A DNA stretch of 64,000 nt from an uncultured Clostridia bacterium (lineage in GTDB: Bacteria; Bacillota; Clostridia; TANB77; CAG-508): positions 93,580 through 157,579 of the forward strand of contig CAOXTD010000002.1 in assembly GCA_948560265.1 (NCBI GenBank), given 5' to 3'. This document shows positions 11,269 through 33,280 of this stretch, one piece after another. Within the stretch, counting starts at the first letter, position 1. The number at the start of each line of letters is the position of its first letter. The notes under the pieces are model-generated. The model did no database searches. It had not been told where the DNA came from and saw only the letters and a program-made list of their open reading frames with translations. A program made the position numbers and the translations under genes.

Positions 11269-12651
11269 GTGAAATTTAGAATGGCGACAACGAGTTTATG
11301 GAAGGTAGAAAGTAGAATAGATCATGTTGTAGATTATGCTACTGATAAAGATAAAACTAAAAATAAATATTATAATCAATTTAATAATTTTTCTAGTGTA
11401 AGAGATTTACTTTCGTACGCTACTAATCCAGATAAAACTGAAAAACAATTTTTTACAACAGGAATTAATTGCAAAGTAGAAGATGCAGTTAAGCAAATGG
11501 AACTTGTAAAAACATTATATGGAAAAGAAGATGGAATACTTGCTTTTCATGGTTACCAATCTTTTGATAAAGGAGAAGTTACTCCAGAAATTGCTCATGA
11601 AATAGGAGTTAGACTTGCTGAAGAAATGTGGGGAGATAGATTTCAAGTTGTAGTCTCAACTCATTTAAATACGGATCATATTCATAATCATTTTGTAGTA
11701 AATTCAGTTTCATTTAAAGATGGGCTTAAATACTATAGTGATTTAACTAATACAGCTTTACTAAGAAAAACATCAGACGATTTATGTGATGAATATGGAT
11801 TAAGAGTGCTAGAAGAAAAGACATGCAAATCTGGAATTAATTTTGAAAACTTTTATAAAAAATCTATTAGAGAATCGGATTATTATAAATTTGCAAAAGA
11901 AGATTTAGACTATGCAATAAAACATTCTTATACTCAAAAAGAATTCCATCAGTATTTATCATCAATGGAATATAGTTATTATTATAGAGCAAATAAATTA
12001 TGCATAAGGAGAGAACCGTATAAAAGAAATATCAGAGTTGAAAGAGCTTTTGGAGAAGAATATTCTGTAGAAAATATTAGACAAAGAATAATAGCAAATG
12101 ATTTTATTCCAAAAGAGAAAATAATTCCATATAAAAGAACTACTTTAAAGTTCTATGTAAGGAAAAGTGTTTTTAGAAAGGCATATAAACCTAAAGGAAT
12201 AATTGCTTTATATTATTACTATAGATTTTTATTGGGATTGCATAAAAGAAATAATGTGCAACATAAACTGACTCCAAAAATGAGAGAAGAAGTAAAAAAG
12301 ATGGATAGGTATTCAGAAAGAATAAGATTCTTGTGTAAATATAAATTAGAAACAATTGATAATGTAGATGAACTGAAAACAAAGAAGTTAAGAGAAAAGC
12401 AAGATATACTAAATACTAGAAATAGATTATATTATAAAAGAGGCAAAGTAGATAATGAAACAGAGAAAAATGAGATTACAAAACAAATAATTGCAGTTAC
12501 AACTGAGCTAAAAAGGGTAAAAAAGGAAATTAGAATGTGTGATGAAGTTACAGATAGTGTTTCTGGTATGAAGGAACAAATAAGAGAAACTGAAGAAAAA
12601 TCAAGGGAAAAGGAAAAACAAAAGAAGAAAGATAGAAAATATGAAAGATAG
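11269..12651 (+). CDS. relaxase / mobilization nuclease (MobA/VirD2-like, 3-His motif)
   Basis: HLNTDHIHNHFVVNSV is an HxDxxHxH-type metal-binding motif. The K/E-rich C-terminal coiled region is typical of Mob proteins. Confidence 0.7.
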   Translation: MKFRMATTSLWKVESRIDHVVDYATDKDKTKNKYYNQFNNFSSVRDLLSYATNPDKTEKQFFTTGINCKVEDAVKQMELVKTLYGKEDGILAFHGYQSFDKGEVTPEIAHEIGVRLAEEMWGDRFQVVVSTHLNTDHIHNHFVVNSVSFKDGLKYYSDLTNTALLRKTSDDLCDEYGLRVLEEKTCKSGINFENFYKKSIRESDYYKFAKEDLDYAIKHSYTQKEFHQYLSSMEYSYYYRANKLCIRREPYKRNIRVERAFGEEYSVENIRQRIIANDFIPKEKIIPYKRTTLKFYVRKSVFRKAYKPKGIIALYYYYRFLLGLHKRNNVQHKLTPKMREEVKKMDRYSERIRFLCKYKLETIDNVDELKTKKLREKQDILNTRNRLYYKRGKVDNETEKNEITKQIIAVTTELKRVKKEIRMCDEVTDSVSGMKEQIRETEEKSREKEKQKKKDRKYER

Positions 12652-12814: not shown

Positions 12815-14368
12815 ATGATAAATAACAGAGAAAGAGAAGAACTACATAAAGCAATATGGTCAATAGCAGATGATTTAAGAGGTTCAGTAGATGGATGGGA
12901 TTTTAAACAATATATTTTAGGTATAATGTTTTATAGATATATTTCAGAAAATATAACAAATTATATAAATGAGGGAGAAAGAAAAGCAGGAGATATATCT
13001 TTTGATTATGCTAAATTAAAAGATAATGAAGCAGAGACTGAAAGAGATAATCTTGTTAAAGAAAAAGGGTTCTTTATTCTACCATCAGAATTATTTGCAA
13101 ATGTAGTAAAAAGAGCAAGAGATGATGAAAATTTAAACGAAACATTAGAAAAGATATTTAATAATATAGAAAATTCCGCAAAAGGTGCTGAAAGTGAAGA
13201 TGACTTTTCAGGTCTATTTGACGATATAGATGTAAATAGTAATAAGTTAGGAGCTACAGTTACAAAAAGAAATGAGAAACTTGTAAAAATACTAGAAGGA
13301 ATAGCAAGTATCAATTTAGGAAATTATCAAGATAACCAAATCGATGCATTTGGAGATGCTTATGAATTTTTAATGAGTATGTATGCATCGAATGCAGGAA
13401 AATCAGGGGGAGAATTTTATACACCACAAGAAGTTAGTGAACTTTTAACTAAACTTGCTATTGTTGGGAAAACATCAGTAAATAAAGTATATGATCCTGC
13501 TTGTGGTTCAGGTTCATTACTATTAAAGTCTGCAAAGATATTAGGAAAAGAAAATGTTAGAAATGGTTTTTATGGACAAGAGATAAATTTAACTACATAT
13601 AATCTTTGCAGAATAAATATGTTCTTACATGATATTGGATATGATAAATTTAATATTGCATGTGAAGATACATTAGTTTCTCCACAACATTGGGACGATG
13701 AACCTTTTGAAGTAATAGTTTCAAATCCACCATATTCAATTAAGTGGGCGGGAGATGATAATGCAGTTTTAATAAATGACCCGAGATATTCACCAGCAGG
13801 TGTACTAGCTCCAAAATCAAAAGCAGATTTTGCATTCATTATGCATTCTCTTTCATGGTTAGCAACAAATGGTACTGCATCAATAGTATGTTTTCCTGGT
13901 ATTCTTTATAGAGGCGGATCAGAACAAAAAATAAGAAAATACTTAATTGATAATAACTTTGTTGATTGTATTATTCAATTACCTGATAATTTATTCTTTG
14001 GAACAAGTATTGCAACTTGTATAATGGTATTAAAGAAAAGCAAAAAAGATAATAGCACCTTATTTATAGATGCAACAAATGAGTGTGTTAAGGTAACAAA
14101 TAATAATAAATTAACTGATGATAATATAAATAATATTATAGAGATATTTAAAAATAGAGTAGATAAGGAACATATTGCAAAAATAGTATTGAATGAAGAA
14201 ATTGCCAAAAATGATTATAATTTATCAGTTGCAACTTATGTAGAAAAAGAAGATACAAGAGAAAAAATCGATATTATTGAATTAAATAAAGAAATAGATG
14301 AAATCGTTGAGAGAGAAAATAAACTTCGTATTGAAATAGCTAAAATAATTGCAGATATAGAGGTGTAA
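12815..14368 (+). CDS. hsdM: type I restriction-modification system methyltransferase subunit HsdM
   Basis: N6-adenine methyltransferase motif IV VSNPPYS, SAM-binding DPACGSGS and an HsdM N-terminal domain. 517 aa. Confidence 0.9.
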   Translation: MINNREREELHKAIWSIADDLRGSVDGWDFKQYILGIMFYRYISENITNYINEGERKAGDISFDYAKLKDNEAETERDNLVKEKGFFILPSELFANVVKRARDDENLNETLEKIFNNIENSAKGAESEDDFSGLFDDIDVNSNKLGATVTKRNEKLVKILEGIASINLGNYQDNQIDAFGDAYEFLMSMYASNAGKSGGEFYTPQEVSELLTKLAIVGKTSVNKVYDPACGSGSLLLKSAKILGKENVRNGFYGQEINLTTYNLCRINMFLHDIGYDKFNIACEDTLVSPQHWDDEPFEVIVSNPPYSIKWAGDDNAVLINDPRYSPAGVLAPKSKADFAFIMHSLSWLATNGTASIVCFPGILYRGGSEQKIRKYLIDNNFVDCIIQLPDNLFFGTSIATCIMVLKKSKKDNSTLFIDATNECVKVTNNNKLTDDNINNIIEIFKNRVDKEHIAKIVLNEEIAKNDYNLSVATYVEKEDTREKIDIIELNKEIDEIVERENKLRIEIAKIIADIEV

Positions 14369-14369
14369 A

Positions 14370-15617
<1,248 letters not shown>

Positions 15618-15627
15618 GGGGAAGAAA

Positions 15628-18600
15628 ATGAGTAAATATAATGTAGTAATTGAAACAAGTAATTCTACTGTTGTAGCTGAATATGAGCCTTTAAAAAGAA
15701 AATCGGATAGTTATCAAAGTGAAGCTGCACTTGAAAAAGAATTTATAAGAATGCTAACTGAACAGGGATATGATTATTTAGAAATTCACGAACAAGATGC
15801 TTTAGTTACAAATCTTCGTAAACAATTAGAATTATTAAATGATTATAAATTTACTGAAAGCGAATGGGAAAGATTTTTTAATAATAACATAGCAAATAAT
15901 AATGATGGTATTGTAGAAAAAACTAGAAAAATTCAAGAGGATCATATTCAAGTATTAAAAAAAGATGATGGAACAAGTAAAAACATTTATCTTTTAGATA
16001 AAAAGAATATTCATAACAATAGATTACAAGTCATAAATCAGTATGTTGAAAATAATGGGAACTATGATAATAGATATGATGTTACTATTCTTGTAAATGG
16101 AATTCCCTTAGTTCATGTTGAATTAAAAAGAAGAGGTGTTGCTTTAAAAGAAGCATTCAATCAAATAAATAGATATCAAAGAGACAGTTTTTGGGCAGGT
16201 AGTGGGCTTTATGAATATATACAGATATTTGTTATATCAAATGGAACAAATACAAAATATTATTCTAATACTACAAGAGAAAGCCATATAAAAGAACAGA
16301 GTAAAACTAGAAATAAGAGTAAAAAAACAAGTAATAGTTTTGAATTTACAAGTTATTGGGCAGATGCAAATAATAAAGTAATAAATGATTTAGTTGATTT
16401 TACTAGAACTTTTTTATCAAAACATACTATTTTGAATGTATTAACAAAATATTGTGTATTTACTTCTGAAGAACTTTTATTAGTAATGAGACCTTATCAA
16501 ATTGTCGCAACAGAAAGAATACTTAATAAAATAGAAGTATCTACTAATTATAAAAAAATGGGAACCATTGATGCGGGAGGATATATTTGGCATACAACAG
16601 GGTCTGGTAAAACACTAACATCTTTTAAGACAGCACAACTTGCAACTAATTTAGAATATATTGATAAGGTATTATTTGTGGTTGATAGAAAAGACTTAGA
16701 TTATCAGACAATGAAAGAATATGATAGATTTGAGAAAGGTGCAGCTAACGGTAATAGGAGTACAAAAGTACTTCAAAAACAATTAGAAGATACAACTTCA
16801 AAAATAATTGTTACAACTATTCAAAAATTAAGTGAATTTGTAAAAAGAAATCCAAGTCATCCAGTATTTCAAAAGCATTTAGTATTGATATTTGACGAAT
16901 GTCATCGTTCTCAATTTGGTGATATGCACAAAATGATAGTTAAGAACTTTAAAAATTACCATTTATTTGGGTTTACAGGAACACCTATATTTGCTAAAAA
17001 TGCCACTAATAAGTCTAATCCTGATTTTTGCACAACTGAGCAGGCTTTTGGAGATAAATTACATACATATACAATAGTTGATGCTATAAATGATGGAAAT
17101 GTACTTCCATTTAGAATTGATTATATAAATACAATTAAGAAAAAAGAAGGAATGACAGACAAAGAAGTACAAGCTATAAATACTGAAGAAGCTTTATCTT
17201 CTTATGAAAGAGTTAGCAATGTAGTAAGTTATATAATTGAACATTTTGATCAAAAAACAAAAAGAAATTCATTTTATGATTTAAAAGGACAAAGATTAAA
17301 TGGCTTCAATTCAATTTTTGCAGTAGCATCAATACCAATGGCAAAGAAATATTATTTAGAATTAAAAAAGCAATTAGAAGAAAAACATAAGGATTTGACT
17401 ATTGCAACGATATATTCTTTTGCAGCAAATGAAGAAGATACTACTGATGGAATATTAGATGATGAGGGATTTGAAACAGAATTATTAGACCAAAGTTCAA
17501 GAGAGTTTTTAGATTTTGCAATAGATGAATATAATAAAAAATTTAAAACAAACTTTTCGTCAGAGGGTAATGGTTTTCAAGATTATTATAAAGACTTATC
17601 AGATAGAGTTAAGAAGAGAGAAGTTGATTTGCTTATAGTTGTAAATATGTTTTTAACAGGTTTTGATGCTACAACATTAAATACATTATGGGTAGATAAA
17701 AACTTAAAACAACATGGACTAATACAAGCATATTCAAGAACTAATCGTATCTTAAACTCAGTAAAATCTTATGGCAATATAGTTTGTTTTAGAGATTTAC
17801 AAGAACAAACAAATGATGCAATTGCATTATTTGGAGATAAGGATGCATCAGGAATAGTTTTATTAAAATCTTATGAAGATTATTATTACGGGTATGAAGA
17901 TGATAAAGGTAAAAAACAAAAAGGATATGAAGAAAGAATAGCAGAGTTACTTCAAAAATATCCATTAGGAGAACAAATAGTAGGAGAACAAGCTCAAAAA
18001 GACTTTATTGTTTCTATGGGAAATATTTTAAGACTTAAAAATATATTATCTTCATTTGATAGATTTGAAGGAAATGAAATACTTTCTGAAAGAGATTTCC
18101 AAGACTACATAGGAACTTATACGGATTTATATGAAGAATTTAAATCCAGAAAAGATAATGGAGAAGTAGAAAGTATAAAAGATGATGTAGTATTTGAGAT
18201 GGAACTTGTAAAACAAGTAGAAGTAAATATTGATTATATATTGATGTTAGTTGCAAAATATCATCAATCAAATTGCACAGATAAAGAAATATTAGGTTCA
18301 ATTGATAAAGCAATAAAATCAAGTTTAGCACTTCGTTCTAAAAAAGAACTTATTGAAACATTTATATCAAAAATAAATACAAATACAGATGTAATGAGTG
18401 ATTGGACTAAATTTGTTAAAGAACAAGAAGAAATTGACCTAAGAAATTTAATTGAAGAAGAAAACTTGAATGATGAAGAAACAAGAAAATTTATAGATAA
18501 TGCATTTAGAGATGGACAAGTTAAAACAACAGGGACAGATATTGAAAAAATATTACCACCAATGAGAAGATTCGGCGGAGGTAATAGGGCAGAAAGAAAA

Positions 18601-18759
18601 GAATCAATAATTGAGAAAATAAAGAAATTCTTTGAAAAATATTTTGGAATTTGGAGTTCAAATAATAACGAAGATACTATAGTATATGATATTACAGAAG
18701 ATGATACTGAAAGCTTAGCAATGGTAGCTGAAGAAGGAGAAGAATATAAGCATGAATAA
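15628..18759 (+). CDS. hsdR: type I RM restriction subunit HsdR (SF2 helicase/endonuclease)
   Basis: 1043 aa with Walker A TTGSGKTLT, DEAH-like FDECHRSQ, an N-terminal nuclease domain and an HsdR C-terminal domain. Confidence 0.9.
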   Translation: MSKYNVVIETSNSTVVAEYEPLKRKSDSYQSEAALEKEFIRMLTEQGYDYLEIHEQDALVTNLRKQLELLNDYKFTESEWERFFNNNIANNNDGIVEKTRKIQEDHIQVLKKDDGTSKNIYLLDKKNIHNNRLQVINQYVENNGNYDNRYDVTILVNGIPLVHVELKRRGVALKEAFNQINRYQRDSFWAGSGLYEYIQIFVISNGTNTKYYSNTTRESHIKEQSKTRNKSKKTSNSFEFTSYWADANNKVINDLVDFTRTFLSKHTILNVLTKYCVFTSEELLLVMRPYQIVATERILNKIEVSTNYKKMGTIDAGGYIWHTTGSGKTLTSFKTAQLATNLEYIDKVLFVVDRKDLDYQTMKEYDRFEKGAANGNRSTKVLQKQLEDTTSKIIVTTIQKLSEFVKRNPSHPVFQKHLVLIFDECHRSQFGDMHKMIVKNFKNYHLFGFTGTPIFAKNATNKSNPDFCTTEQAFGDKLHTYTIVDAINDGNVLPFRIDYINTIKKKEGMTDKEVQAINTEEALSSYERVSNVVSYIIEHFDQKTKRNSFYDLKGQRLNGFNSIFAVASIPMAKKYYLELKKQLEEKHKDLTIATIYSFAANEEDTTDGILDDEGFETELLDQSSREFLDFAIDEYNKKFKTNFSSEGNGFQDYYKDLSDRVKKREVDLLIVVNMFLTGFDATTLNTLWVDKNLKQHGLIQAYSRTNRILNSVKSYGNIVCFRDLQEQTNDAIALFGDKDASGIVLLKSYEDYYYGYEDDKGKKQKGYEERIAELLQKYPLGEQIVGEQAQKDFIVSMGNILRLKNILSSFDRFEGNEILSERDFQDYIGTYTDLYEEFKSRKDNGEVESIKDDVVFEMELVKQVEVNIDYILMLVAKYHQSNCTDKEILGSIDKAIKSSLALRSKKELIETFISKINTNTDVMSDWTKFVKEQEEIDLRNLIEEENLNDEETRKFIDNAFRDGQVKTTGTDIEKILPPMRRFGGGNRAERKESIIEKIKKFFEKYFGIWSSNNNEDTIVYDITEDDTESLAMVAEEGEEYKHE

Positions 18760-18935
18760 AGAAGAATTATTGCCGTTTGTAAAATTTATAACAGAAATGG
18801 ATAAGAAAATGGTGGATGAGGATAGACAACATAATTTATCTAAAGAACAAAAAGAGATGATAAAACAATTTTTAGATCAATGTTATGAAAATTTTAAAAA
18901 TAGTAATTAAAGGAAGAATTATAAGATTTAAATAA

Positions 18936-18975
18936 GCAGACTCCAATGAGCCTGCTTTACCTTTATTATTTTTTC
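18936..18975. terminator. bidirectional rho-independent terminator between hsdR and the convergent small gene
   Basis: AAGCAG-actccaatgagc-CTGCTT followed by a T-rich run. Confidence 0.5.
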
Positions 18976-19109
18976 TTATGTGTATGTTTTGGTTGCCTTT
19001 GAGATAAAGCAGAACCAGCTACAGATTTTGTAGTTTTAGAAGTTCTACCATCTTTCAAAAGTTTTGATGCTTTTGAAGCAACACTTGAACTTGTTTTTTT
19101 ACAAGCCAT
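18966..19109 (-). CDS. small basic Lys/Ser/Thr-rich protein (47 aa), unknown function
   Basis: MACKKTSSSVASKASKLLKDGRTSKTTKSVAGSALSQRQPKHTHKKK with an AGGCGGTGA RBS. Below the 60-aa cutoff of the ORF track. Confidence 0.35.
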   Translation of the reverse strand: MACKKTSSSVASKASKLLKDGRTSKTTKSVAGSALSQRQPKHTHKKK

Positions 19110-19244
19110 AAGAATCACCGCCTTTCTGGGATAAAATTTTTCCTCCTTTGATTTTCATTAGAAAACTGATAACAATAAAATAATAGCAAAGCCCAAATAA
19201 AAGTCAACATTTTTGAATAATGAAACGGGACTGTAAAGGTCCCG

Positions 19245-19511
19245 TTATTGTAAATTTTCAGAAATCCAGTCCCATTGTTTTTGATTCAACCAACCTTTTA
19301 TAGGTTTGGTAACTTTGGTGATTATCATAGCATCATTCCCATCGAGATGAGATACGCATTTATCAGAAACTGTTTTTAAATCAGAAGAAGTTGAGATTAG
19401 GAATGTTGTAGTTAGATATTTGCACCATGTTCCAAAAGACTTAATATCATTTTCAACATTCTCCCTATTTTGTGTAGGTGAGTGTAAGTCATAAGATATC
19501 ATATAAATCAT
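19245..19511 (-). CDS. hypothetical 88-aa protein (beta-strand start MISYDL resembles Cas2/ferredoxin-like folds; unassigned)
   Basis: Internal Met of the 165-aa track ORF, with a GGAAGGAG RBS 8 nt upstream. The track ORF's N-terminal 77 aa overlap promoter DNA and are rejected. Confidence 0.45.
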   Translation of the reverse strand: MIYMISYDLHSPTQNRENVENDIKSFGTWCKYLTTTFLISTSSDLKTVSDKCVSHLDGNDAMIITKVTKPIKGWLNQKQWDWISENLQ

Positions 19512-19723
19512 AAGAAATTCTCCTTCCCATTCCAAAGAAGTCAAAAAGTGTTGACTGCTAACAATAGAAAGTGTTATAATACTTCTAATAATACTTTTGC
19601 GAGAAGTTATTAAGAAGCATTTCATGTTGTTTATAACACTTGGAATGCTTTTTATTGTTAAAGAGATTATACAACTTAGAAAATATAAAGTCAATATATT
19701 TTTAAAAAAATGTCCCAAAATTA

Positions 19724-19752
19724 TTGACATTTGTCCCAACAAAAAATATAAT
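19724..19752 (+). promoter_or_regulatory. consensus sigma-A promoter (TTGACA, 17 bp spacer, TATAAT) upstream of the AAA ATPase gene
   Basis: ttgacatttgtcccaacaaaaaatataat. Copies of TGTCCCAA flank the -35 element. Confidence 0.6.
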
Positions 19753-19768
19753 ATAGTAGGGTGATAAA

Positions 19769-20806
19769 ATGAAAAAGAAAAATGTATTAAATTTAATTAA
19801 ATATTATTCAGAAAAAAATGATGAAGCATTCAGAAATGAAGCGTATGAGATAGCTAGAGAATTTGATGAAACTGGAGATTTTCAATTATCTGAATATATA
19901 ATGGCATTACTGTCTAATGTTAATACTTTTGTACCACAAGGTAAAAATTACGATTTATCCTTTTTTATAAAAGTAGAACCAAGTCAATCATCTTTACCAT
20001 TACCAGAAAAGATAAAAGAAGATATTATAGGTATTATAAATGCTGTAGGGCATAATGCTGGAGTAAATAAATTTTTATTTGAAGGGGCTCCAGGTACAGG
20101 TAAAACTGAAACTGTAAAACAATTGGCACGCATATTAGAAAGAGATTTGTTTTCAGTAGAATTTGATACTGTAATAGATAGCAAATTAGGACAGACATCT
20201 AAAAATATTTCAGAACTATTTAAAGAAATACAAAATTTATCACATCCAGAAAAAATAATTATTTTATTTGATGAAATAGATTCAATTGCATTAGATAGAA
20301 TTAATAAAAATGATCTTAGAGAAATGGGAAGAGCAACTTCTGCAATTTTGAAAGGATTAGATACACTAAATGAAAATATTGTTTTTATAGCCACAACAAA
20401 TTTATATGAATCATTTGATAAAGCATTAGTTAGAAGATTTGACTCTGTAATTAATTTTAATAGATATGAAAAAGAAGATTTAATAGAAATATCGGAATAT
20501 TTATTAAATGAAGCATTAGATAAATTTAAATTTGCAGGACGAAATGTTAAATTATTTAGAAAAATAATGAATATGATGGAAGACATACCTTATCCAGGAG
20601 AATTAAAGAATATTATAAGAAGCTCAATAGCATTTAGCAATCCTAATGATGAATATGATTATTTGAAGAGATTATTTACATTGGTGAATAAAAATAGTAA
20701 TGGTAATCTGAAAGAATTACAAGACATAGGATTAACTGTTAGAGAAATTGAAATATTAACAGGAATTTCTAAAAGTCAAGTTTCAAGGGAAATAAAGGGT
20801 GAGTAA
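19769..20806 (+). CDS. AAA+ ATPase (IetA-like partner of an S8 peptidase)
   Basis: Walker A GAPGTGKTE, Walker B ILFDEID, sensor FIATTN and arginine finger RRFD. Overlaps the downstream S8 gene by 8 nt. Confidence 0.75.
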   Translation: MKKKNVLNLIKYYSEKNDEAFRNEAYEIAREFDETGDFQLSEYIMALLSNVNTFVPQGKNYDLSFFIKVEPSQSSLPLPEKIKEDIIGIINAVGHNAGVNKFLFEGAPGTGKTETVKQLARILERDLFSVEFDTVIDSKLGQTSKNISELFKEIQNLSHPEKIIILFDEIDSIALDRINKNDLREMGRATSAILKGLDTLNENIVFIATTNLYESFDKALVRRFDSVINFNRYEKEDLIEISEYLLNEALDKFKFAGRNVKLFRKIMNMMEDIPYPGELKNIIRSSIAFSNPNDEYDYLKRLFTLVNKNSNGNLKELQDIGLTVREIEILTGISKSQVSREIKGE

Positions 20807-23027
20807 AATGAATGAATTATTACAATTAAAAGGAAAATTTTTTCAAAAGTCAAATAATTCTAAGCCAGGACCATCAAATCTTCCTAAGGGGGAATATGTT
20901 AAAATTGATCACTTAAAAAACTTAGAAAAACAGTTATTAGATTTGCGAGAATTTTGGAATGATGAAAAATATCTAAATGGGGCATTGATAAGTGTATTTT
21001 ATAAAGATGTTGTAGCAAAAAGTAGAAGAGTTAAAGGATTTCTTTCAAAGGGAGTTAAAACAGCCAATAGTTCAATAGTTGGTGCAAAATTTACAGATGG
21101 AGATAAAAGAAAACATATTATAACACATTATATAACAAAGGAAGTATTAGAAGAAACAATTAATAGAATAAGTGAGTCGATAAAAATTATATCTGAAAAA
21201 TTTGGCAATGAAATTAATTATTATAATATAGAGCAAATAAACAAAAAGAATATTAATATAGAAAAATATGATATTGGCAGAAATAATTTTGTTAATATTG
21301 TAGTTGATTCATTTTATGTTGAAAAATTTTCAATTTTAGAGGAGAAAGATGATATAAATCAAAATTCACTTATTACAATATATAAGACAGATATTGATAC
21401 CAAAGAATTGTTAGAAAAAATAGGAATAAATATATTCTCATCAAGAATATTAGACGAAACGACTATATTTTTAACACCAGATCAATTAAAAATATTAAAA
21501 AATAATGCACCATATTTAATAGCAATGAAAGTGAGTGATTTATCTAATTATAATTATGAAGATTTTTTTGCAGTAGAAGATTTGAAACCAATCTCAATCC
21601 CAGAGCCAACTAATGAACCTATAATAGGAGTAATAGATACATTATTTGATAAAAGAGTTTATTTTTCAGATTGGGTAGAGTTTGTTGATAAAACAGATGT
21701 TAATATACCTATAGAAAATAAGGACTATGAACATGGAACGGAAGTAACATCAATTATAGTAGATGGACCACAAATTAATCCAGAAATGGATGATGGATGT
21801 GGGAGATTTAGAGTTAAACATTTTGGAGTAGCTAGAGCAACTCAAATGAGTTCATTTTCAATTTTGAAAGCAATAGAAGAAATTATTTCAAAAAATAAAG
21901 ATATACATGTTTGGAATTTATCTTTAGGATCTTCATTAGAAGTAAATTCTAACTTTATATCTCCAGAAGCTGCTTATTTGGATAAGATACAATATGAAAA
22001 TAATGTGATATTTGTTATTGCAGGAACAAATAAAACAAGAGAAGATATAGAGAGAATAGGTGCACCTGCAGACTCAATAAATTCTTTAGTTGTTAATTCA
22101 GTTAATATGAGAGGTGAACCAGCTACATATGCAAGAAAAGGTATAGTTTTATCTTTTTTTAACAAACCTGATATTAGCTACTATGGTGGAGATGAAGACA
22201 AATATATGAGAGTATGTGGACCGACTGGTGAAGGTAGGGTTACAGGAACATCATTTGCAGCACCTTGGATTGCTAGAAAGATGGCATATTTGATTGAGAT
22301 ATTAGGATTTCCTAGAGAAGTTGCAAAAGCATTACTTATAGATTCTGCAACTGGATGGAATGAGCAAAATTCAAATGAATTATCATGTTTAATCGGTTAT
22401 GGAATTGTACCTAAAAGAATTGAGGACATATTAAAGACATCTAATGATGAAATAAAATTTATTTTATCTGGCGAATCAGAAAAATATGATACATATAATT
22501 ACAATATTCCTGTACCAATATATGGAGATAAACATCCATTTATTGCTAAAGCTACAATGTGCTATTTTCCTAACTGTTCTAGAAATCAAGGGGTAGATTA
22601 CACTAATACAGAATTAGACATATATTTTGGGAGAATAGGAGAAAAAGGAATACAGTCTATAAATGAAAATACGCAATCAATAGAAGGAGAACATTACTTG
22701 AGAGAAGAAAATGCAAGAAAGTATTATAGAAAATGGGATAATGTAAAACATATTAGACAAGTATATAAAGAAGGAATAAGACCTAAAAAAGCTTATGGAA
22801 ACGGTATATGGGGAATTAGTATAAAAACTAAAGAAAGATTAGAAAAAAGAGATGGAGAAGGCATTAAATTTGGAGTTGTTGTAACTCTTAAAGAAATAAA
22901 TGGAGTAAATAGAATAGATGAATTTATCAATCTGTGTTCACTGAGAGGATGGCTAGTGAATAAGGTAAATGTAGAAAATCAAATCGATATATATAATAAA
23001 GCAGAAGAAGATATTGAATTTGAATAA
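20799..23027 (+). CDS. S8 family subtilisin-like serine peptidase (IetS-like), 742 aa with long N- and C-terminal extensions
   Basis: Catalytic triad in order Asp (VIDTLFD), His (HGTEVTSII), Ser (GTSFAAPWIA); Asn-containing segment AGTN. Confidence 0.75.
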   Translation: MSKMNELLQLKGKFFQKSNNSKPGPSNLPKGEYVKIDHLKNLEKQLLDLREFWNDEKYLNGALISVFYKDVVAKSRRVKGFLSKGVKTANSSIVGAKFTDGDKRKHIITHYITKEVLEETINRISESIKIISEKFGNEINYYNIEQINKKNINIEKYDIGRNNFVNIVVDSFYVEKFSILEEKDDINQNSLITIYKTDIDTKELLEKIGINIFSSRILDETTIFLTPDQLKILKNNAPYLIAMKVSDLSNYNYEDFFAVEDLKPISIPEPTNEPIIGVIDTLFDKRVYFSDWVEFVDKTDVNIPIENKDYEHGTEVTSIIVDGPQINPEMDDGCGRFRVKHFGVARATQMSSFSILKAIEEIISKNKDIHVWNLSLGSSLEVNSNFISPEAAYLDKIQYENNVIFVIAGTNKTREDIERIGAPADSINSLVVNSVNMRGEPATYARKGIVLSFFNKPDISYYGGDEDKYMRVCGPTGEGRVTGTSFAAPWIARKMAYLIEILGFPREVAKALLIDSATGWNEQNSNELSCLIGYGIVPKRIEDILKTSNDEIKFILSGESEKYDTYNYNIPVPIYGDKHPFIAKATMCYFPNCSRNQGVDYTNTELDIYFGRIGEKGIQSINENTQSIEGEHYLREENARKYYRKWDNVKHIRQVYKEGIRPKKAYGNGIWGISIKTKERLEKRDGEGIKFGVVVTLKEINGVNRIDEFINLCSLRGWLVNKVNVENQIDIYNKAEEDIEFE

Positions 23028-23054
23028 TACTAAAATTTGTGATAGGAGAAGAGA

Positions 23055-23624
23055 ATGAACAAAATAGATAATGTAGAATTTTATAAAGATTTATATTTGT
23101 TTGAAATTGCTAGAAAAGAAAATTTAAATTCTAAAATATCAACTTATATAGGACTTTTAACAGTGCTTGGAGGAATTGTTGTCTTTGAATTAGAGAATTT
23201 GTATCAAAATTTAAATGTTAATCCTATAATACAATTTGAACTTATAGTATTGATAATGATAATTTTAGGAATTAATATATATAACTTATATAAGGCTAAT
23301 CATGGTAAAGAATATAAATATTTAGATAATTCTATAGAAGTAAAAAAAGCATTTGTTGAATTGGAAAGATATTATCAGCAATATTATGAATATTTTAAAA
23401 ATGGAGAAGAAACAATAGATTCTTTAATAGAAAGAAAAAAGAAAGAAAAGCTAATAGAAATGTATATTCAATGTAGTGAAGAAAATGCTAGAGTAAATGA
23501 TATTAGGAATGAAGAAACTATGAGATTTATAAATTTTTTTATAATTTCTCTAATTATAGTAGGTATTATAGGAATATATTGTATAACTGTAAAGAAGCCT
23601 ATAGATATTAATATTTTATACTAG
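23055..23624 (+). CDS. membrane protein (2-3 TM helices), unknown function
   Basis: Hydrophobic segments LLTVLGGIVVF, LIVLIMIILGI and FIISLIIVGIIGIYCI. Confidence 0.5.
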   Translation: MNKIDNVEFYKDLYLFEIARKENLNSKISTYIGLLTVLGGIVVFELENLYQNLNVNPIIQFELIVLIMIILGINIYNLYKANHGKEYKYLDNSIEVKKAFVELERYYQQYYEYFKNGEETIDSLIERKKKEKLIEMYIQCSEENARVNDIRNEETMRFINFFIISLIIVGIIGIYCITVKKPIDINILY

Positions 23625-23838
23625 GAGGTGAATTATTATGTCAGATAGTGATACAAAAAAAGAAGTGGATAAAGTTACTCCACCACCAGAACCACAATTA
23701 CCAACTAAGACTTTATGCGAGAGTTTTTCAAAGAAAAACTCTAAAAATACAGAGAAAAGATAGTTAAAAATATAGATATTATTAAATGTAATTGAATAGT
23801 ATAAAATTTAACTAATAAATACAAAATAATTATAATAT

Positions 23839-23880
23839 TAAAGTGCAATTTTTACACTTAAAGTGCAAAAATTGCACTTT
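23839..23880. promoter_or_regulatory. tandem palindromic operator-like sites (AAGTGCA-N5-TGCACTT, twice) overlapping the promoter of the fic gene
   Basis: aaagtgcaatttttacactt followed by aaagtgcaaaaattgcacttt, immediately downstream of a TATAAT at 23831. Confidence 0.55.
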
Positions 23881-23936
23881 AAATATTGATATTATATCTT
23901 ACAACTGATATAATATATATGTAGGAGGTATTTCTA

Positions 23937-25007
23937 ATGGATAAGAAAAAAGATTGGAATTTAGAATTATCAGAATATATTAAACAGGGTGAGCCAAATC
24001 GAGTAGAAAAGACCAAAACATGGGAAACAGCAATAGGTTTGCAAGATGTAGATGGATTAAAACCTTCAAAATACTTAATAAAAACTGCAAAAGAACACAT
24101 TGAAGGAACAATAGATATCGAAGAAGTAAAAACAAGAATAGATGAATACTATGAAGTTCAAGGCAGTAGAAAAAACTTTGAAAAAGAAAACGAAGAAGCT
24201 GATAAAGTTGCAGTAAGAATAACAGAAATATTAAGTGAAAAAGCATTTAATTTTTCACCAACAGAACTATTAAATATTCATAAAAGATTATTCAAAAATA
24301 TATTTGATGGAGCAGGAGTATATAGAGATTATAATTTTACTAAAAAAGAATGGGTATTAAATGGAGATACAGTAATATATGCACCATTTGATACAATAAA
24401 AGAAACATTAGAATACGATTTTGAACAAGAGAAAACCTTTTCATATAAAGGATTAAGCTTAGATGAATCTATAAAACATCTATGTAAATTCACATCAAAT
24501 ATATGGCAAGTACATCCATTTTGCGAAGGAAATACAAGAACAACAGCAGTATTTATAATTAAGTATTTAAGAACTTTTGGATTTAATATTAATGATGAAG
24601 TATTTGCTGAAAACTCATGGTATTTTAGAAATTCATTAGTAAGAGCAAATTACAAAAATTTTGAAAAAAATGTATTTGAAGATACATCATTTTTGGAAAA
24701 GTTCTTTTATAACTTGCTAACAAATGCTAACAATGAATTAAAAAATAGATATACACATATAGATAATATTCAAAGTGCAAATGAAAATAATTTAAAGGGT
24801 AATAATTACACTTTAGAAGAACAGGCAATTATAAACATATTAGAAAATAATCCAGCAACTACTCAAGAAGAAATAGCAAAGCAAATTAATAAATCTTTGA
24901 GAACCATTAAAACATATATGGCAGAAATGCAAGATAAAGGACTGATAGAAAGAAAAAATGGAAAAAAGAATGGTGAATGGATAGTGAAAGGTATAACATT
25001 TAAGTAA
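23937..25007 (+). CDS. Fic/DOC family protein with degenerate active-site motif and C-terminal winged-HTH
   Basis: HPFCEGNTRTTAV versus canonical HxFx(D/E)GNGRxxR. The C-terminal wHTH is LEEQAIINILENNPATTQEEIAKQINKSLRTIKTYMAEMQDKGLI. Confidence 0.7.
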   Translation: MDKKKDWNLELSEYIKQGEPNRVEKTKTWETAIGLQDVDGLKPSKYLIKTAKEHIEGTIDIEEVKTRIDEYYEVQGSRKNFEKENEEADKVAVRITEILSEKAFNFSPTELLNIHKRLFKNIFDGAGVYRDYNFTKKEWVLNGDTVIYAPFDTIKETLEYDFEQEKTFSYKGLSLDESIKHLCKFTSNIWQVHPFCEGNTRTTAVFIIKYLRTFGFNINDEVFAENSWYFRNSLVRANYKNFEKNVFEDTSFLEKFFYNLLTNANNELKNRYTHIDNIQSANENNLKGNNYTLEEQAIINILENNPATTQEEIAKQINKSLRTIKTYMAEMQDKGLIERKNGKKNGEWIVKGITFK

Positions 25008-25052: not shown

Positions 25053-26477
25053 ATGGAAAAGAAAGTCGAACATCCAAGAGTATTTATATCTTACTCATGG
25101 TCAAGTAAAGAATATGAAGAAAAAGTCATGGATTTAGCAGTGAAATTACAAGGAGATGGAATTGAAGTTATTATTGACAAATGGATTATGCAACCTGGTA
25201 ATGATACAATAAATTTTATGGAGAAGTGTGTTAAAGATCCTGAAGTTAATTTTGTTTTGATGTTATTAGATAAAAAATATACTGAAAAAGCAGATAGCAG
25301 AAGTGGAGGAGTAGGAATAGAAACTCAAATTATTTCAAATGAAGTATATAATAATGTTGAACAAAGTAAATTTATACCTATTGTTTTTGATAGAGATGAT
25401 GAAGGAAAAATATATGTACCAATTTATCTAAAGAGTAAATTTCACTATGATTTAACACAAGATAATTCTGATGAAGAATATGTAAAGTTAGTAAAACAAA
25501 TATATGGAAGACAAATATATTATAAACCAGAGCTAGGAAATAAACCTAGTTGGGTTGATGAAAGTTTAAATAGTCCGAGTGCTTTAAAATTAAAAATATT
25601 ACAAAATAAGAATAATAAGAGTAGCTTCAATTCTTTGGAAGAAGAGATAAAAAAATCATCTTTAGGTGAAGATGAAACTGAGATTATAGAAAAAGCAGAA
25701 AAAAATAGAGTAATTATAGAAAAATACAATAATTCGATAGAATATAGGAATGCATTAATAGAGATATTTTTTAATAAATATACAGAAGATAATTTTATTG
25801 ATGAAACTTGTGATTTTTATGAGAATATTAAAAACTGGAATAAGCAAAATAGTGGTATAAAACAAGAAATATGGGATGCTTTTATCCATGAAACCTTTAT
25901 ATATTTAATAGCAGTTTTATTAAAAATGAAACAATATAGAACAATAAATATATTTATTACTAAAAGCTATTTTCAACAAGGATATGAGGATAACATTACA
26001 AGTTCTAATAAGTATTTTTATAGTCATAATTATGATATTATCCAAGAATCAAAATGTGAGTTAGATGATAAAAAATATTATAGTGGAATGGCACAAATAT
26101 GGATAGAAAATATTTATGAACCTAAAATAACGAAACAAGAGTTTACCCAGGCAGATGTATTAATTTACAATTTAAATATATTATTATTAAATAAAGAAGA
26201 TTGGTATTGGTTTCCAATTACTTATGTATATAATGGAAATTTTGGATTTAATAGTTCTTTAAAAGATTTTAGCATAAGACTAAAATCTAAATATGAAGTG
26301 AATAAGATGAAAGAATTATTTGGAGTTAACACAATAGAAGAATTAAAAAAATTATTTGATGCAATGAAACCATTTATAGAAAATAGACAAGAAAGGTATA
26401 GATATATAACAGCTTTTGAATATGCAGATTTAATTACAGATTATGTAAAAGTAAATGAAATTGGTATGTTAAATTAA
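25053..26477 (+). CDS. TIR-like (DUF1863/SEFIR-type) N-terminal domain protein with ~340-aa uncharacterised C-terminal region
   Basis: N-terminus RVFISYSWSSKEYEEKVMDLAVKLQGDGIEVIIDKW matches the FISYS TIR-like signature. 45-nt gap after fic, with a GAAGGAG RBS. Confidence 0.55.
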   Translation: MEKKVEHPRVFISYSWSSKEYEEKVMDLAVKLQGDGIEVIIDKWIMQPGNDTINFMEKCVKDPEVNFVLMLLDKKYTEKADSRSGGVGIETQIISNEVYNNVEQSKFIPIVFDRDDEGKIYVPIYLKSKFHYDLTQDNSDEEYVKLVKQIYGRQIYYKPELGNKPSWVDESLNSPSALKLKILQNKNNKSSFNSLEEEIKKSSLGEDETEIIEKAEKNRVIIEKYNNSIEYRNALIEIFFNKYTEDNFIDETCDFYENIKNWNKQNSGIKQEIWDAFIHETFIYLIAVLLKMKQYRTINIFITKSYFQQGYEDNITSSNKYFYSHNYDIIQESKCELDDKKYYSGMAQIWIENIYEPKITKQEFTQADVLIYNLNILLLNKEDWYWFPITYVYNGNFGFNSSLKDFSIRLKSKYEVNKMKELFGVNTIEELKKLFDAMKPFIENRQERYRYITAFEYADLITDYVKVNEIGMLN

Positions 26478-26831: not shown

Positions 26832-27185
26832 CTACATATATAAAATCTCATTAAAAACAATTTCCTCAGCTCTATTTTTAATATTATTCATAGCCTGAAC
26901 CCATTCCATTTGATGATGCTCTTTTAAATTTTCATCAATATGTTCAAGTTCAGCAAATTGTTTTATAAGTTGATTTACTTTGTCAGTAGTACTTTTATCT
27001 ATCTCAATTAAATGTTGCTTTAAAGTACCGCTTATAAGCAATTCAGTATATAGACCTTTCTTAAAATCTTTTAAATAGTTTAATCTTAACCTTCCATATT
27101 TACCAATACTTCCTTTAGGTTGCTTAGGTAAATATAAGTCAGGAATTAAATAATCTCCTTCTCTGTGATAAATAATTTCATTCAT
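26832..27185 (-). CDS. TnpV-like transposon-encoded protein
   Basis: MNEIIYHREGDYLIPDLYLPKQP resembles the TnpV N-terminus (xYxxVGDYLLPDLxLP). GGAGG RBS before the ATG at 27185; the longer track ORF start is rejected. Confidence 0.6.
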   Translation of the reverse strand: MNEIIYHREGDYLIPDLYLPKQPKGSIGKYGRLRLNYLKDFKKGLYTELLISGTLKQHLIEIDKSTTDKVNQLIKQFAELEHIDENLKEHHQMEWVQAMNNIKNRAEEIVFNEILYM

Positions 27186-27414
27186 TTTCAAAACCTCCAA
27201 ATTATAAAAAATTAAAATGTCCCCAATTTGCAAATGCTATTTTGAATCTATTGTGATACAAGGCTTTTCAGACCTTGGGGACACAATGGGGACAAAAGCA
27301 CCAAAAAATGTCCTAAAAACGCACAAAAGTTCTATAAATTAAAATAGCTACAAACGTTGATATTTAGATAAAAACTTAACTTTTCATTAAATTACAAAAA
27401 ATGCTGCTTAAATC

Positions 27415-27616: not shown

Positions 27617-30316
27617 ATGGATATACATAAATATTTAATAAGGATAAAAGAGGAAGATAAAACGGAAGAAGTTTCCAACTATAGTGTAGACAATGAATAT
27701 GCACATATTAACTTTAAGAATAGTGAAATATCATATACGTATTTAAAGAAAGACATCCAAATCTATAAAAATCCAATAGAAATAGATACTCAGAAATATA
27801 AATTAATGATTAGTCATGGCTATGTATATAATGTTATCAAAGTAATTAAATTTGATTTATATTATAGGATCTTTTTCCAAGATGGCACCTCAATTGTAAT
27901 CCAGGAAGATGAGTTGCAACTAATAGAAAACAATAATACGCAAGCATTATCTATGAATAAATTTGACTATTACAAAGAAATATCCGATATAGTTAGTGTG
28001 AAAACAGAAGAAGGAAACTCAATACTTACTAATGAATATAAAAAGATTAATTTTATATCCAAAAATACAGCCTTATATAAATATTTAAATCCAAAATTCT
28101 CAAATCATAAAATAGGTTTCAATTTCAATAATACTATTTTCCCATTTGGAGCAAATAAATCGCAGTTTAAAGCAGTAAAATGTGCTATGGCTAGTCAAAT
28201 TAGTATTATAGAAGGGCCACCTGGCACAGGAAAAACGCAAACAATATTAAATATCATAGCTAATATTATTAGAAATGGTCAAACAGTAGCGGTAGTATCT
28301 AATAACAATGCTGCAACAGAGAATGTCTATGAAAAATTACAAAAATATCATTTAGATTATTTATGCGCGAAATTAGGCAAAAGAGATAATAAAGAAGAGT
28401 TTATTCAAAATCAAACAGGTCAATATCCTAAATTTTCAGGGGAATTAGCAAATGAAGAGCTAATACAAAATCAGATTATAACTCTAAATCGAGATATGAA
28501 TAGTATATTTGAAATTCAGAATAAGATAGCTAAAATGAGAGAGGAATTAAGTGAAATTAAAACACAACATGAATATTTTAATAAACAACAAAGAGAAGAT
28601 GAAATAATTGTGCCAAAAATTAGAGACGTTAATAAAATTGCTTCAGATGATATTATGAAATTAAAAGTAGAGATTGAAGAAATATCAAAAGTAAATCTTT
28701 GGTTCAAAATAAAGTCGCAATTCTTATATGGAATAGGAAATAGAAAATTTTACAAAAGGACGAAACAAGATGTTATTCAAAGCTATAATAAGTTATTTCT
28801 TATGATAAAAGAAATGGAATTAGAACAAGAAATAAAAAGCAATGAACGAAAATTAAAATCATTAGGAAATAATAGATTAGATTTATTAACAGAAAATTCC
28901 ATGAAATTATTAAATGAACATTTGAGAAAAAAATATGGTCAAAGAACAGAAAGGAAAATATATAAAGCATCAGATTTATATAATGCATCAACAAACTTTA
29001 ATTCTGAGTATCCAATTGTGTTTAGTACAACCTATTCCATTAAAAAATGTTTAAATGAAAATTACAAATTTGATTATATTATTATGGATGAAGCATCACA
29101 AGTGGATCTAATTACAGGAGTTTTAGCTTTATCAGTTGCAAAAAATGCAGTAATAGTAGGAGATTTGAAACAATTACCAAATGTTATTACAACAGAAAAT
29201 AAAAAACTAATAGAAGAGATTTCAAAGAAATATCAAATAGAAAGTAAATATGATTATTTACAACATAGTTTTTTATCATCAGTAAGTCAAACTGTAACTG
29301 ATGCACCAAGAACGCTACTACAAGAACATTATAGATGCCATCCAAAAATCATACAATTTTGCAACAAAAAATTTTATGATGATAAACTCGTTATTATGAC
29401 AGAAGATCAAGGAGAAAAAGATGTGCTTAAAGCATATATAACAACAAAAGGCAATCATGCAAGAGATCATGTTAATTATAGGCAAATTGATGTCATAGAA
29501 AAAGAAATTATGTCAGAGCTCACAAAAGAAATTGATATCAATGATATAGGAGTGATCTCCCCATACAGAGATCAGAAAAAGGAGTTAGATAAGAAATTCA
29601 ATTCCAAATTGAAAATTGATACGATTCATAAATTTCAGGGGAGAGAAGAAGAAGCAATTATCATAACAACTGTAGATAATGAAATAGGGAAATTTGTTGA
29701 CGACCCTAAAATGTTAAATGTTGCAGTAACGAGAGCGAAAAGATATTTACGACTAGTGGTATCAGATAATGAAAAAAATCAAGGAACGAATATAGATGAC
29801 TTATTAAAATATATACAATATAATAATTTTGAGATAGTGAAAAGTAAAACAAAATCTATTTATGATTTACTATATAAAGAAAATAGACAAAAACGTATGG
29901 AGTATTTAAAAAACAAAAAAAGAGTTTCAGATTATGATTCTGAAAATTTAACCTATCATCTAATAGAGAACATTCTAAAAGAAAATGGATACAACAACTT
30001 AGATGTAGCTGTTCATGTTCCTTTGATAGATATTATAGAGACAGATGAGCTTTTAAATGAAGAAGAAAAGAAATTTGTTAGTAATAAATGGACTCATATT
30101 GATTTTGCTATTTTTAATAAAATGGATAAAAGACTAGTTATTGCAGTAGAAGTAGATGGATATTATTTTCATAAAGAAGGAACAAAACAGCAAGAAAGAG
30201 ACAATATTAAAGGAAGGATTTTGAAAAAATATGAAATTCCACTAGTGAGACTTAACACTACTGGAAGTGAAGAAAAGAAAATACTAGAAGAAAAGATTAA
30301 GGAAATTTTCACTTAA
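27617..30316 (+). CDS. SF1 (Upf1/DNA2-like) helicase fused to a C-terminal DUF559/Vsr-like restriction-endonuclease-fold domain
   Basis: Walker A GPPGTGKTQ, motif II IIMDEASQ, VGDLKQLPNV and motif VI NVAVTRAKRY. The C-terminus THIDFAIFNKMDKRLVIAVEVDGYYFHK is a DUF559-like PD-(D/E)xK. Confidence 0.7.
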   Translation: MDIHKYLIRIKEEDKTEEVSNYSVDNEYAHINFKNSEISYTYLKKDIQIYKNPIEIDTQKYKLMISHGYVYNVIKVIKFDLYYRIFFQDGTSIVIQEDELQLIENNNTQALSMNKFDYYKEISDIVSVKTEEGNSILTNEYKKINFISKNTALYKYLNPKFSNHKIGFNFNNTIFPFGANKSQFKAVKCAMASQISIIEGPPGTGKTQTILNIIANIIRNGQTVAVVSNNNAATENVYEKLQKYHLDYLCAKLGKRDNKEEFIQNQTGQYPKFSGELANEELIQNQIITLNRDMNSIFEIQNKIAKMREELSEIKTQHEYFNKQQREDEIIVPKIRDVNKIASDDIMKLKVEIEEISKVNLWFKIKSQFLYGIGNRKFYKRTKQDVIQSYNKLFLMIKEMELEQEIKSNERKLKSLGNNRLDLLTENSMKLLNEHLRKKYGQRTERKIYKASDLYNASTNFNSEYPIVFSTTYSIKKCLNENYKFDYIIMDEASQVDLITGVLALSVAKNAVIVGDLKQLPNVITTENKKLIEEISKKYQIESKYDYLQHSFLSSVSQTVTDAPRTLLQEHYRCHPKIIQFCNKKFYDDKLVIMTEDQGEKDVLKAYITTKGNHARDHVNYRQIDVIEKEIMSELTKEIDINDIGVISPYRDQKKELDKKFNSKLKIDTIHKFQGREEEAIIITTVDNEIGKFVDDPKMLNVAVTRAKRYLRLVVSDNEKNQGTNIDDLLKYIQYNNFEIVKSKTKSIYDLLYKENRQKRMEYLKNKKRVSDYDSENLTYHLIENILKENGYNNLDVAVHVPLIDIIETDELLNEEEKKFVSNKWTHIDFAIFNKMDKRLVIAVEVDGYYFHKEGTKQQERDNIKGRILKKYEIPLVRLNTTGSEEKKILEEKIKEIFT

Positions 30317-31330: not shown

Positions 31331-31666
31331 AAAAATCTTGATAAGAATAAGTTTTGGATAAAATTTAATTAGGGAACTTATTTTATCTATTAACATAATT
31401 ATATCACTAAAGTAAGGTCGAAATTTGTAGAAATTGGTCAACAGACTACAAAAAGATAAAAAACATGATAAATACTATAACGAACACTAAAAAAATGTCA
31501 AAAAAAGTAGAAAATTGACGAAAATAAGTAAATGAACAAACTAGGTGAAACAAAATTTACAAAAGTGCTTGCAAAAGCAAATACAATTCGTTACAATAAT
31601 ATTATTATTTCAATTGATTTATTTCAAAAAATTATTTCAAAAAACAATCCAAAGGAGAAATTTAAA

Positions 31667-33206: not shown

Positions 33207-33255
33207 GTCAGATTGGGGACGTTCCTTTTTCTGACACTTTTGTCAGATTGGGGAC
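33207..33255 (+). repeat. two direct copies of GTCAGATTGGGGACG, 19 bp apart, between comM and dprA
   Basis: Copies at 33207-33221 and 33241-33255. The first is part of a GTCAGA...TCTGAC hairpin. Confidence 0.7.
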
Positions 33256-33280
33256 GCACCTTACAGCACAAAAAAAGAAA

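Follow-up and report, generated by a model that had tools for sequence, protein, structure and literature searches.

A divergent IetAS ATPase–subtilase module with a conserved promoter box pair on a clostridial mobile element

In a 64,000-nucleotide (nt) stretch of DNA from an uncultured Clostridia bacterium (contig CAOXTD010000002.1; the whole stretch is hereafter the window), a sigma-70-type promoter precedes two co-directional genes that encode a AAA+ ATPase and a subtilisin-like S8 protease. An ATPase–protease pair of this kind, IetAS, was reportedly described as an anti-phage system by Gao et al. in 2020. We assign the two genes to this family as ietA and ietS, and we consider it likely that they constitute a complete IetAS module of a divergent and widespread subfamily, carried as mobile cargo, in which IetS would be the toxic effector and IetA both its antitoxin and the repressor of their shared operon. 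The literature on other members of the family supplies the toxin and antitoxin roles, as well as the activity against phage, the abortive infection and the phage protein as trigger. What the analysis itself establishes is the gene structure, intact catalytic and ATPase motifs, the family assignment, the strict linkage of the two genes, the promoter, the conservation of the boxes and the prediction of an HTH. The activity of the present copy, the binding of IetA to its promoter and the manner in which IetA would restrain IetS are what we infer here. New in this locus are a conserved pair of TGTCCCA boxes at the promoter and a predicted helix-turn-helix (HTH) at the C-terminus of IetA.

The gene pair and its family

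A sequence-only reading of the window had proposed an IetAS-like operon behind a consensus promoter, with forward-strand open reading frames at 19769..20806 (345 residues) and 20799..23027 (742 residues) that overlap by 8 nt. Both frames exist, and the promoter is as described: TTGACA, a 17-nt spacer and TATAAT agree with the sigma-70 consensus at 12 of 12 positions, the sole such match within 18500-24200. The overlap is the part that probably does not stand. Full-length IetS homologues measure 738-741 residues and share the N-terminus MN(E/N)LLQLKG, and the ATG at 20808 is preceded by AAGGGTGAG; IetS therefore most likely comprises 739 residues and begins 1 nt after the ietA stop codon (20804-20806), rather than running to 742 residues from an upstream GTG (Table 1). 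The two genes of relatives overlap by up to 8 nt or lie up to 3 nt apart (-8 to +3 nt), so that the conserved feature is tight coupling. The Shine-Dalgarno-like element before ietA has a counterpart in relatives, which carry a comparable GGTGA or GGAGG at the same position. The two genes are adjacent and co-directional, with the ATPase first, and would be co-transcribed from the single promoter upstream; related loci all keep this order.

IetA residues 103-231 match the Pfam AAA family (PF00004, E 2.8e-26). The Walker A motif GAPGTGKT (K112), the Walker B motif FDEID (D168/E169), the sensor-1 residue N211 and an arginine pair, R222/R223, are invariant across 45 homologues, in keeping with the Walker motifs, sensor and arginine finger that had been noted from the sequence and with intact motifs for nucleotide binding and hydrolysis. 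In the AlphaFold2 (AF2) model, which has a predicted local distance difference test score (pLDDT) of 83, a three-helix bundle and a flexible linker precede the AAA+ core, lid and C-terminal HTH. The best Foldseek matches are 55LCC, katanin, Rpt subunits, Vps4, p97 and TRIP13, and the closest sequences and structures alike are classical-group protein-remodelling rings (Cdc48/p97, Rpt, Vps4, katanin, 55LCC, TRIP13). Two other assignments of the ATPase do not fit. As a TRIP13-like regulator of a HORMA-containing cyclic oligonucleotide-based anti-phage signalling system (CBASS), IetA would be expected to match TRIP13 best, but PADLOC scores TRIP13 at 5e-21 against 9e-40 for IetA, and neither HORMA nor cyclase genes were found near ietAS. 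Nor does it resemble a bacterial enhancer-binding protein, as its core is of the Cdc48/Rpt/Vps4/katanin type and its promoter is a perfect sigma-70 and not a sigma-54 promoter.

In the protease, residues 273-535 of the 742-residue frame match Pfam Peptidase_S8 (PF00082, E 2e-33). Residues D277, H309, S482 and the oxyanion residue N408 (739-residue numbering) are invariant across 48 homologues and line up with the catalytic residues of the Agrobacterium homologue, so that the intact Asp-His-Ser triad claimed for this protein is borne out in a subtilase of about 740 residues. Its large non-catalytic extensions are likewise real, with about 260 residues N-terminal and about 200 residues C-terminal of the S8 domain; a Pfam scan as permissive as E<=10 matched neither of them. 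The structure model (pLDDT 78) resolves them into a confidently modelled alpha/beta N-domain and an all-beta C-domain. Mean column conservation is 0.78 for the C-domain, close to the 0.79 of the catalytic domain, and 0.64 for the N-domain. The N-domain gave no clear fold match, and no solved structure of any IetS relative was found by sequence search. Among 1.84 billion representative sequences, phmmer returned 419 relatives of the N-domain, all of which carry it N-terminally; those of full length measure 730-770 residues, the short ones resemble contig fragments, and no other architecture was found, so that within this set the domain is restricted to the N-terminus of IetS-sized proteins.

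Because no signal peptide is seen at its N-terminus, IetS is predicted to be cytoplasmic. Subtilases such as KP-43 and Kex2/furin, in which the C-terminal part is a beta-barrel or P domain, are secreted and made as pro-enzymes, whereas IetS combines this predicted location with a family-specific N-domain of 245 residues and an ATPase partner. Directly ahead of the catalytic domain, residues 176-262 combine a beta-alpha-beta-alpha-beta pattern with a disordered linker behind it. An inhibitory propeptide of the I9 type in this region is unsupported, as a profile search against PDB sequences returned only a chance P450 match (E 1.7), and none of 17 IetS members matched Inhibitor_I9 in Pfam at E<=10.

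Profile searches, the check that had been proposed for the IetAS comparison, place the pair in the IetAS family and not in a housekeeping protease-maturation family. The best PADLOC matches are PDLC02196 for IetA (9.1e-40, full length) and PDLC02197 for IetS (1.7e-62, residues 259-730), with five more IetS models matching, and NCBIfam ranks 'anti-phage ATPase IteA' and 'S8 family anti-phage peptidase IteS' first. Both proteins are covered over their full length by PHROGs 3757 and 3964 (7.7e-73 and 1.7e-137). Homology to a plasmid pair from the founding genus is also detectable. Agrobacterium plasmid pAtG3_79a carries an ATPase of 381 residues and an S8 peptidase of 739 residues, the same length as IetS; by BLASTP, IetS aligns with the latter at 24% identity over 434 residues that include all catalytic residues (E 2e-22), and IetA aligns with the former at 33% over the AAA core (E 4e-19). 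The Agrobacterium ATPase also has an HTH-like C-terminal tail, whereas the IetS N-domain is not detectably similar to that of the Agrobacterium-type pair in pairwise comparison. With the IetAS of the Agrobacterium Ti plasmid, the present locus shares coupled co-directional genes for a AAA+ ATPase and then a subtilase of about 740 residues, N- and C-terminal extensions around an intact triad, and a location on mobile DNA. The evidence supports the locus as a new member of a divergent IetAS subfamily that is itself large and poorly labelled.

The candidate matches that we scored comprise at least 7,600 IetS-like and at least 6,300 IetA-like clusters. Named sources of homologues include C. perfringens, C. 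beijerinckii, Sedimentibacter, Turicibacter, Fusobacterium varium and Sulfurospirillum, and the subfamily occurs in clostridia, bacilli, fusobacteria and spirochaetes, on plasmids and in prophages. Plasmids of C. perfringens, Macrococcus, Enterococcus and Agrobacterium carry the pair, and a few sequenced phages carry IetS-like genes; no plasmid with DNA near-identical to the locus was found. To follow linkage we used 18 genome loci and 15 viral-contig loci. Wherever both ends were contained, ietA and ietS were adjacent and coupled (16/16 genome loci and 12/12 viral-contig loci), and the flanks differed from locus to locus, with resolvases, a C5 methyltransferase, toxin-antitoxin genes and insertion sequence (IS) elements among them. 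By these comparisons, ietAS appears as a self-contained, horizontally mobile two-gene module.

Promoter boxes and the C-terminus of IetA

Two copies of the TGTCCCA box accompany the promoter of ietA, one on either side of the -35 hexamer. Here the second box starts 21 nt after the first, and relatives show no spacing other than 20 or 21 nt (20 nt in 18 loci, 21 nt in 13). The 64-kb window contains the pattern GTCCC-N(14-17)-GTCCC a single time, against an expectation of 0.01. In 15 of the first 20 loci compared, the box pair is present exactly once, on the coding strand, just 5′ of ietA; the five exceptions are loci whose upstream DNA is missing, loci with the variant GTCCT and members of the Agrobacterium subfamily. 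When GTCC[CT] is allowed, the pair is found in 14/14 viral-contig loci with upstream DNA and, overall, in 31/31 subfamily loci, which represent 25 distinct sequences. The T before and the A after the GTCCC core, both outside the search pattern, are kept in 20-24 of these 25 sequences, and the position of the boxes relative to the -35 and -10 elements is identical across subfamily loci.

The box-bearing loci come from at least five phyla and include clostridia, bacilli, spirochaetes, Leptotrichiaceae, Lachnospiraceae, Ruminococcaceae, Coriobacteriaceae, a proteobacterial metagenome-assembled genome and a plasmid. IetA identity among them falls to 52% and their flanks are unrelated, and the factor that binds the boxes therefore presumably travels with the operon. 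The IetA HTH is, from sequence comparison, the only DNA-binding candidate that does so. Mean column conservation is 0.85 over this three-helix module and 0.94 over its recognition helix, SKSQVSRE, against 0.81 for the AAA core, which makes it the most conserved region of the protein. Antitoxin-style autorepression, in which the IetA HTH reads the TGTCCCA boxes and represses its own operon, is the most likely explanation of this pattern. A description of an IetA HTH, of an operator or of such regulation was not found in the papers that we searched.

Known regulators offer partial parallels. In type II antitoxins such as HigA and MqsA, as predicted here, an antitoxin with an HTH binds repeated sites that overlap the -35 and -10 elements of its own promoter. 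Unlike those small labile proteins, IetA is a AAA+ ATPase of 345 residues, and the ietAS sites are direct repeats 20-21 nt apart with no palindrome. NtrC-type enhancer-binding proteins and DnaA also place an HTH C-terminal to a AAA+ module, and DnaA boxes are likewise asymmetric direct repeats. However, the IetA core resembles the classical Cdc48/Vps4/katanin/Rpt group and its promoter is of the sigma-70 type; the likeness is one of layout and not of homology.

Subfamilies with another recognition helix have other upstream repeats, or none. Agrobacterium IetA ends in an HTH-like module with a different recognition helix, and on pAtG3_79a (locus L019, 2080-2125) the sequence AAATAACTAT-N18-ATAGTTATTT precedes ietA. 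The experimentally validated operon of B. cereus m1293 has the palindrome ATGCTCATTC-N5-GAATGAGCAT upstream of ietA, in the first 500 nt of the construct (supplement of 10.1101/2022.08.27.505566). Palindromes in these two promoters thus take the place of the two TGTCCCA boxes seen here. Macrococcus IetA has a different recognition helix and its locus lacks the boxes, and upstream of the gene for an E. durans protein that contains GISKSSVQRY, TGGGACA and TGTCCCG stand in inverted orientation. Judged on sequence, other IetAS subfamilies fit a pairing of helix and operator loosely. A fuller proposal would make IetA a DNA-binding AAA+ antitoxin whose HTH reads the boxes, have a phage trigger release the protease and derepress the operon together, and extend the same scheme to other subfamilies with operators of their own; we put it forward tentatively, with the balance slightly against it.

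The surrounding element

The locus lies in a segment of low guanine-cytosine (GC) content, 24-29% up to about 31 kb of the window versus 30-39% beyond. The mobile island next to restriction-modification (RM) and Fic/TIR genes that had been read from the sequence is confirmed by an integrase, a relaxase and TnpV around the pair (Table 1), and we place ietAS in the defence-gene region of an integrative mobilisable element that carries it as cargo. A search of 1-34000 for long direct repeats that might serve as attachment sites gave no convincing candidate. The TIR/SEFIR protein would be a further single-gene defence system of the island.

Table 1. Features of the ietAS locus and its surroundings; positions are those of the window unless residues are stated
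Feature	Position	Strand	Remarks
Tyrosine integrase	6809-8011	-	In the low-GC segment
DUF6076 protein, replisome organiser, DnaC-like ATPase	Between integrase and relaxase, in this order		
MobA/VirD2 relaxase	11269-12651		
Type I RM system	12815-18759		Upstream of ietAS
88-residue gene	19245-19511	-	Divergent from ietA; PHROG 1090 full-length, 4.8e-22
Box 1, TGTCCCAA	19711..19718	+	Candidate operator half-site, directly 5′ of the -35 hexamer
Sigma-70-type promoter	19724..19752	+	TTGACA 19724-19729, TATAAT 19747-19752
Box 2, TGTCCCAA	19732..19739	+	Within the promoter spacer; ends 7 nt before the -10
Shine-Dalgarno-like AGGGTGA	19758..19764	+	4 nt 5′ of the ietA ATG; read from sequence
ietA	19769..20806	+	345 residues, ATG start; classical-clade AAA+ ATPase
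IetA domain layout (AF2)	Residues 3-48, 66-232, 233-310, 314-343		Three-helix bundle, then flexible/disordered linker; AAA+ core; lid; HTH
IetA C-terminal three-helix HTH-like module	20708..20797	+	Residues 314-343
ietS, alternative GTG start	20799	+	Would yield 742 residues
ietS	20808..23027	+	739 residues, ATG start; S8 subtilase, predicted cytoplasmic
IetS domain layout (model)	Residues ~29-245, 246-260, ~263-540, ~541-722		Alpha/beta N-domain; low-confidence linker; S8 domain; beta-sandwich C-domain
orf189	23055-23624		Two predicted transmembrane segments; weak PADLOC '2TM effector' match, E 1.8e-4
orf41	23638-23763		41-residue peptide with its own strong ribosome-binding site
Fic-HTH protein	23937-25007		PADLOC PDC-S72, 1e-125
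TIR/SEFIR protein	25053-26477		474 residues; PADLOC bSEFIR, 1.6e-85
TnpV	26832-27233	-	

Several further features of the window may be recorded. The 88-residue gene has a weakly Cas2d-like N-terminus (PADLOC 1.7e-4), constitutes a 380-bp indel relative to a 96%-identical locus (L001), and has a terminator-like hairpin beside it at 19246-19224. At 23838-23882, a 22-nt inverted repeat (95% complementary, with a 1-nt loop) stands directly 5′ of the promoter of the Fic-HTH gene (23886-23914, an 11/12 match); it probably serves as operator for the winged HTH of the Fic protein itself, and may in addition terminate the ietAS transcript. Towards the edge of the island, 27617-30316 encodes an 899-residue superfamily 1 (SF1) helicase fused to a C-terminal DUF2726 nuclease-like domain. 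Its partial matches to Mokosh MkoA/MkoC, ProA and Hhe all fall far under the cut-offs, and from its sequence it is a candidate single-gene defence protein. Where the GC content rises at the island edge, just upstream of dprA (33248-34126), the Mg-chelatase-like competence ATPase gene comM/yifB (31532-33205) is split into three consecutive open reading frames that cover model positions 4-220, 223-379 and 414-499, the result of either pseudogene formation or sequencing frameshifts. On the left side of the low-GC segment, a tyrosine integrase gene at 4908-6425 lies in the opposite orientation to the one at 6809-8011, which suggests two adjacent or nested integrated elements; no attachment-site repeats were found for them. 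Lastly, a 765-residue protein encoded at 52687-54984 weakly matches Mbov_0396 and pLS20_p028, transmembrane families of integrative and conjugative elements and conjugation, a hint that the right part of the window contains a second conjugative element.

Proposed mode of action and alternatives

Work on other members provides the outline of a mechanism. In its first description, IetAS was a toxin-antitoxin pair that stabilises the Agrobacterium Ti plasmid, the protease being the toxin and the ATPase its antitoxin; the system also acts against phage in a manner that requires an active protease, and it proved impossible to construct ietA mutants (all according to PMC13069673). The IetAS of B. 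cereus works by abortive infection and becomes toxic upon expression of the SPbeta protein YosG (bioRxiv 10.1101/2022.08.27.505566). By analogy, IetA would form an ATP-driven ring of the classical AAA+ type that holds IetS harmless in uninfected cells. Its HTH, bound to the two TGTCCCA boxes two helical turns apart and bracketing the -35, would exclude RNA polymerase, as in the autoregulation of type II antitoxins. A phage-encoded trigger, or loss of the element, would upset this control; IetS, once released, would cleave cellular or phage proteins, and the cell would stop growing or die before phage release, with abortive infection or addiction as the outcome. The IetS N-domain, the flexible 246-260 linker and the three-helix bundle of IetA are candidates for the parts through which IetA might restrain IetS.

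Several points weigh against this scheme. A 2026 paper calls the mechanism by which IetAS counters phage unknown (PMC13069673). At 24% and 33% identity to the Agrobacterium pair, IetAS function for this subfamily is extrapolated across a large distance. The NCBIfam equivalog cut-offs are not reached, with 110.8 versus 510 bits for IteA and 153.5 versus 900 bits for IteS; these models are narrow equivalogs, and scores so far beneath their cut-offs indicate a divergent subfamily and account for the public labels, 'AAA family ATPase' and 'S8 family peptidase'. The pore-loop position of IetA, K139-L140-G141, is invariant and lacks the usual aromatic residue, which makes classical substrate threading uncertain. 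The HTH is a prediction from the structure model and from Pfam matches to MarR_2, HTH_23 and HTH_28 that stay under the cut-offs (E 0.006-0.07), and binding of the boxes by IetS or by a host factor is conceivable.

This last point can be taken further, with the boxes bound by IetS or a host protein, or serving as an element of promoter architecture, and with the C-terminal helices of IetA making protein-protein contacts instead. The sub-threshold HTH matches leave room for such an arrangement, and direct repeats are rarer than palindromes as sites for HTH dimers. We nevertheless judge it unlikely, given that the boxes move with the operon through at least five phyla with unrelated flanks, where a common host factor is improbable, that IetS has no predicted DNA-binding domain, and that the recognition helix is the best-conserved stretch of IetA. 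A stronger competitor concerns the purpose of the module. The pair might be mainly an addiction module that stabilises an element or plasmid by post-segregational killing, with phage defence absent or incidental. Such a role was the one first demonstrated for IetAS, on the Agrobacterium Ti plasmid (as cited in PMC13069673); subfamily homologues adjoin ParA/ParB on 56-kb C. perfringens plasmids and RepB on a Macrococcus plasmid, and the element around ietAS itself carries integrase, replication and relaxase genes. Yet the immediate neighbours of the pair are defence genes (type I RM, PDC-S72 and bSEFIR), and such company on a mobile element supports the defence reading. Other family members protect against phage (10.1101/2022.08.27.505566 and PMC13069673), and the pair is also found on prophage-like contigs and phages. 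Addiction and defence are not mutually exclusive, and a role in addiction only is plausible, if clearly the less probable of the two readings.

The extent of the system and its basic nature raise two weaker alternatives to the two-gene IetAS module. The genes orf189 and orf41 follow ietS closely, and could be extra components of a three- or four-gene system, much as a SNF2 helicase joins the IetA/IetS core in the operon of ietHAS (PMC13069673). No promoter or terminator separates ietS from orf189, which has its own ribosome-binding site after a gap of 27 nt; loci L002-L004 share, at 90% identity, a 4.2-kb stretch that runs from the promoter to orf41 and moves as one unit; and orf189 resembles, weakly, a PADLOC effector family. 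But the helicase is absent here, and relative to L001, which lacks the two genes, they form a clean indel of 721 bp whose junction shows GATAG microhomology; all more distant IetAS loci lack them too. Elsewhere the same pair (185-192 and 38-41 residues) follows ThsA/ThsB of Thoeris, MqsA-SocA/Panacea and VanZ genes. Because of this indel, this absence and this recurrence behind other operons, orf189/orf41 appears to be a separable cassette that is not specific to IetAS, and the larger system is very unlikely. The family of the two genes is rare (12 clusters, with no Pfam match) and may be a small module, for defence or as a toxin, that has gone unrecognised and travels at the 3′ end of defence operons. 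Scarcely credible, in turn, is a housekeeping or secretion protease, whether a leader peptidase for lantibiotics or other ribosomally synthesised and post-translationally modified peptides (RiPPs), a type VII mycosin with EccA, or a germination Csp protease with a helper ATPase. Structural neighbours of IetS do include EpiP, NisP, PatA, CspB and MycP3, and there are weak NCBIfam matches to mycosin (2e-5) and EccA (2.6e-4). At 23.9 versus 278.75 bits and 19.7 versus 466.65 bits, however, these reflect generic S8 and AAA similarity, and the top family matches are IetA and IetS. IetS lacks a signal peptide, no RiPP, ESX or germination genes lie nearby, and there are no ESX genes in the window. 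Scores, context and the missing signal peptide together exclude these roles.

IetAS is a validated defence and addiction system, and the present locus adds nothing categorically new to it. What the locus brings into view is a very large subfamily, with thousands of homologues, behind the labels 'AAA family ATPase' and 'S8 family peptidase'. If our reading of the promoter boxes is true, IetA would be both an ATP-driven remodeller and the repressor of its own operon, and a reporter fusion would offer a handle to find the phage signal that the system senses.

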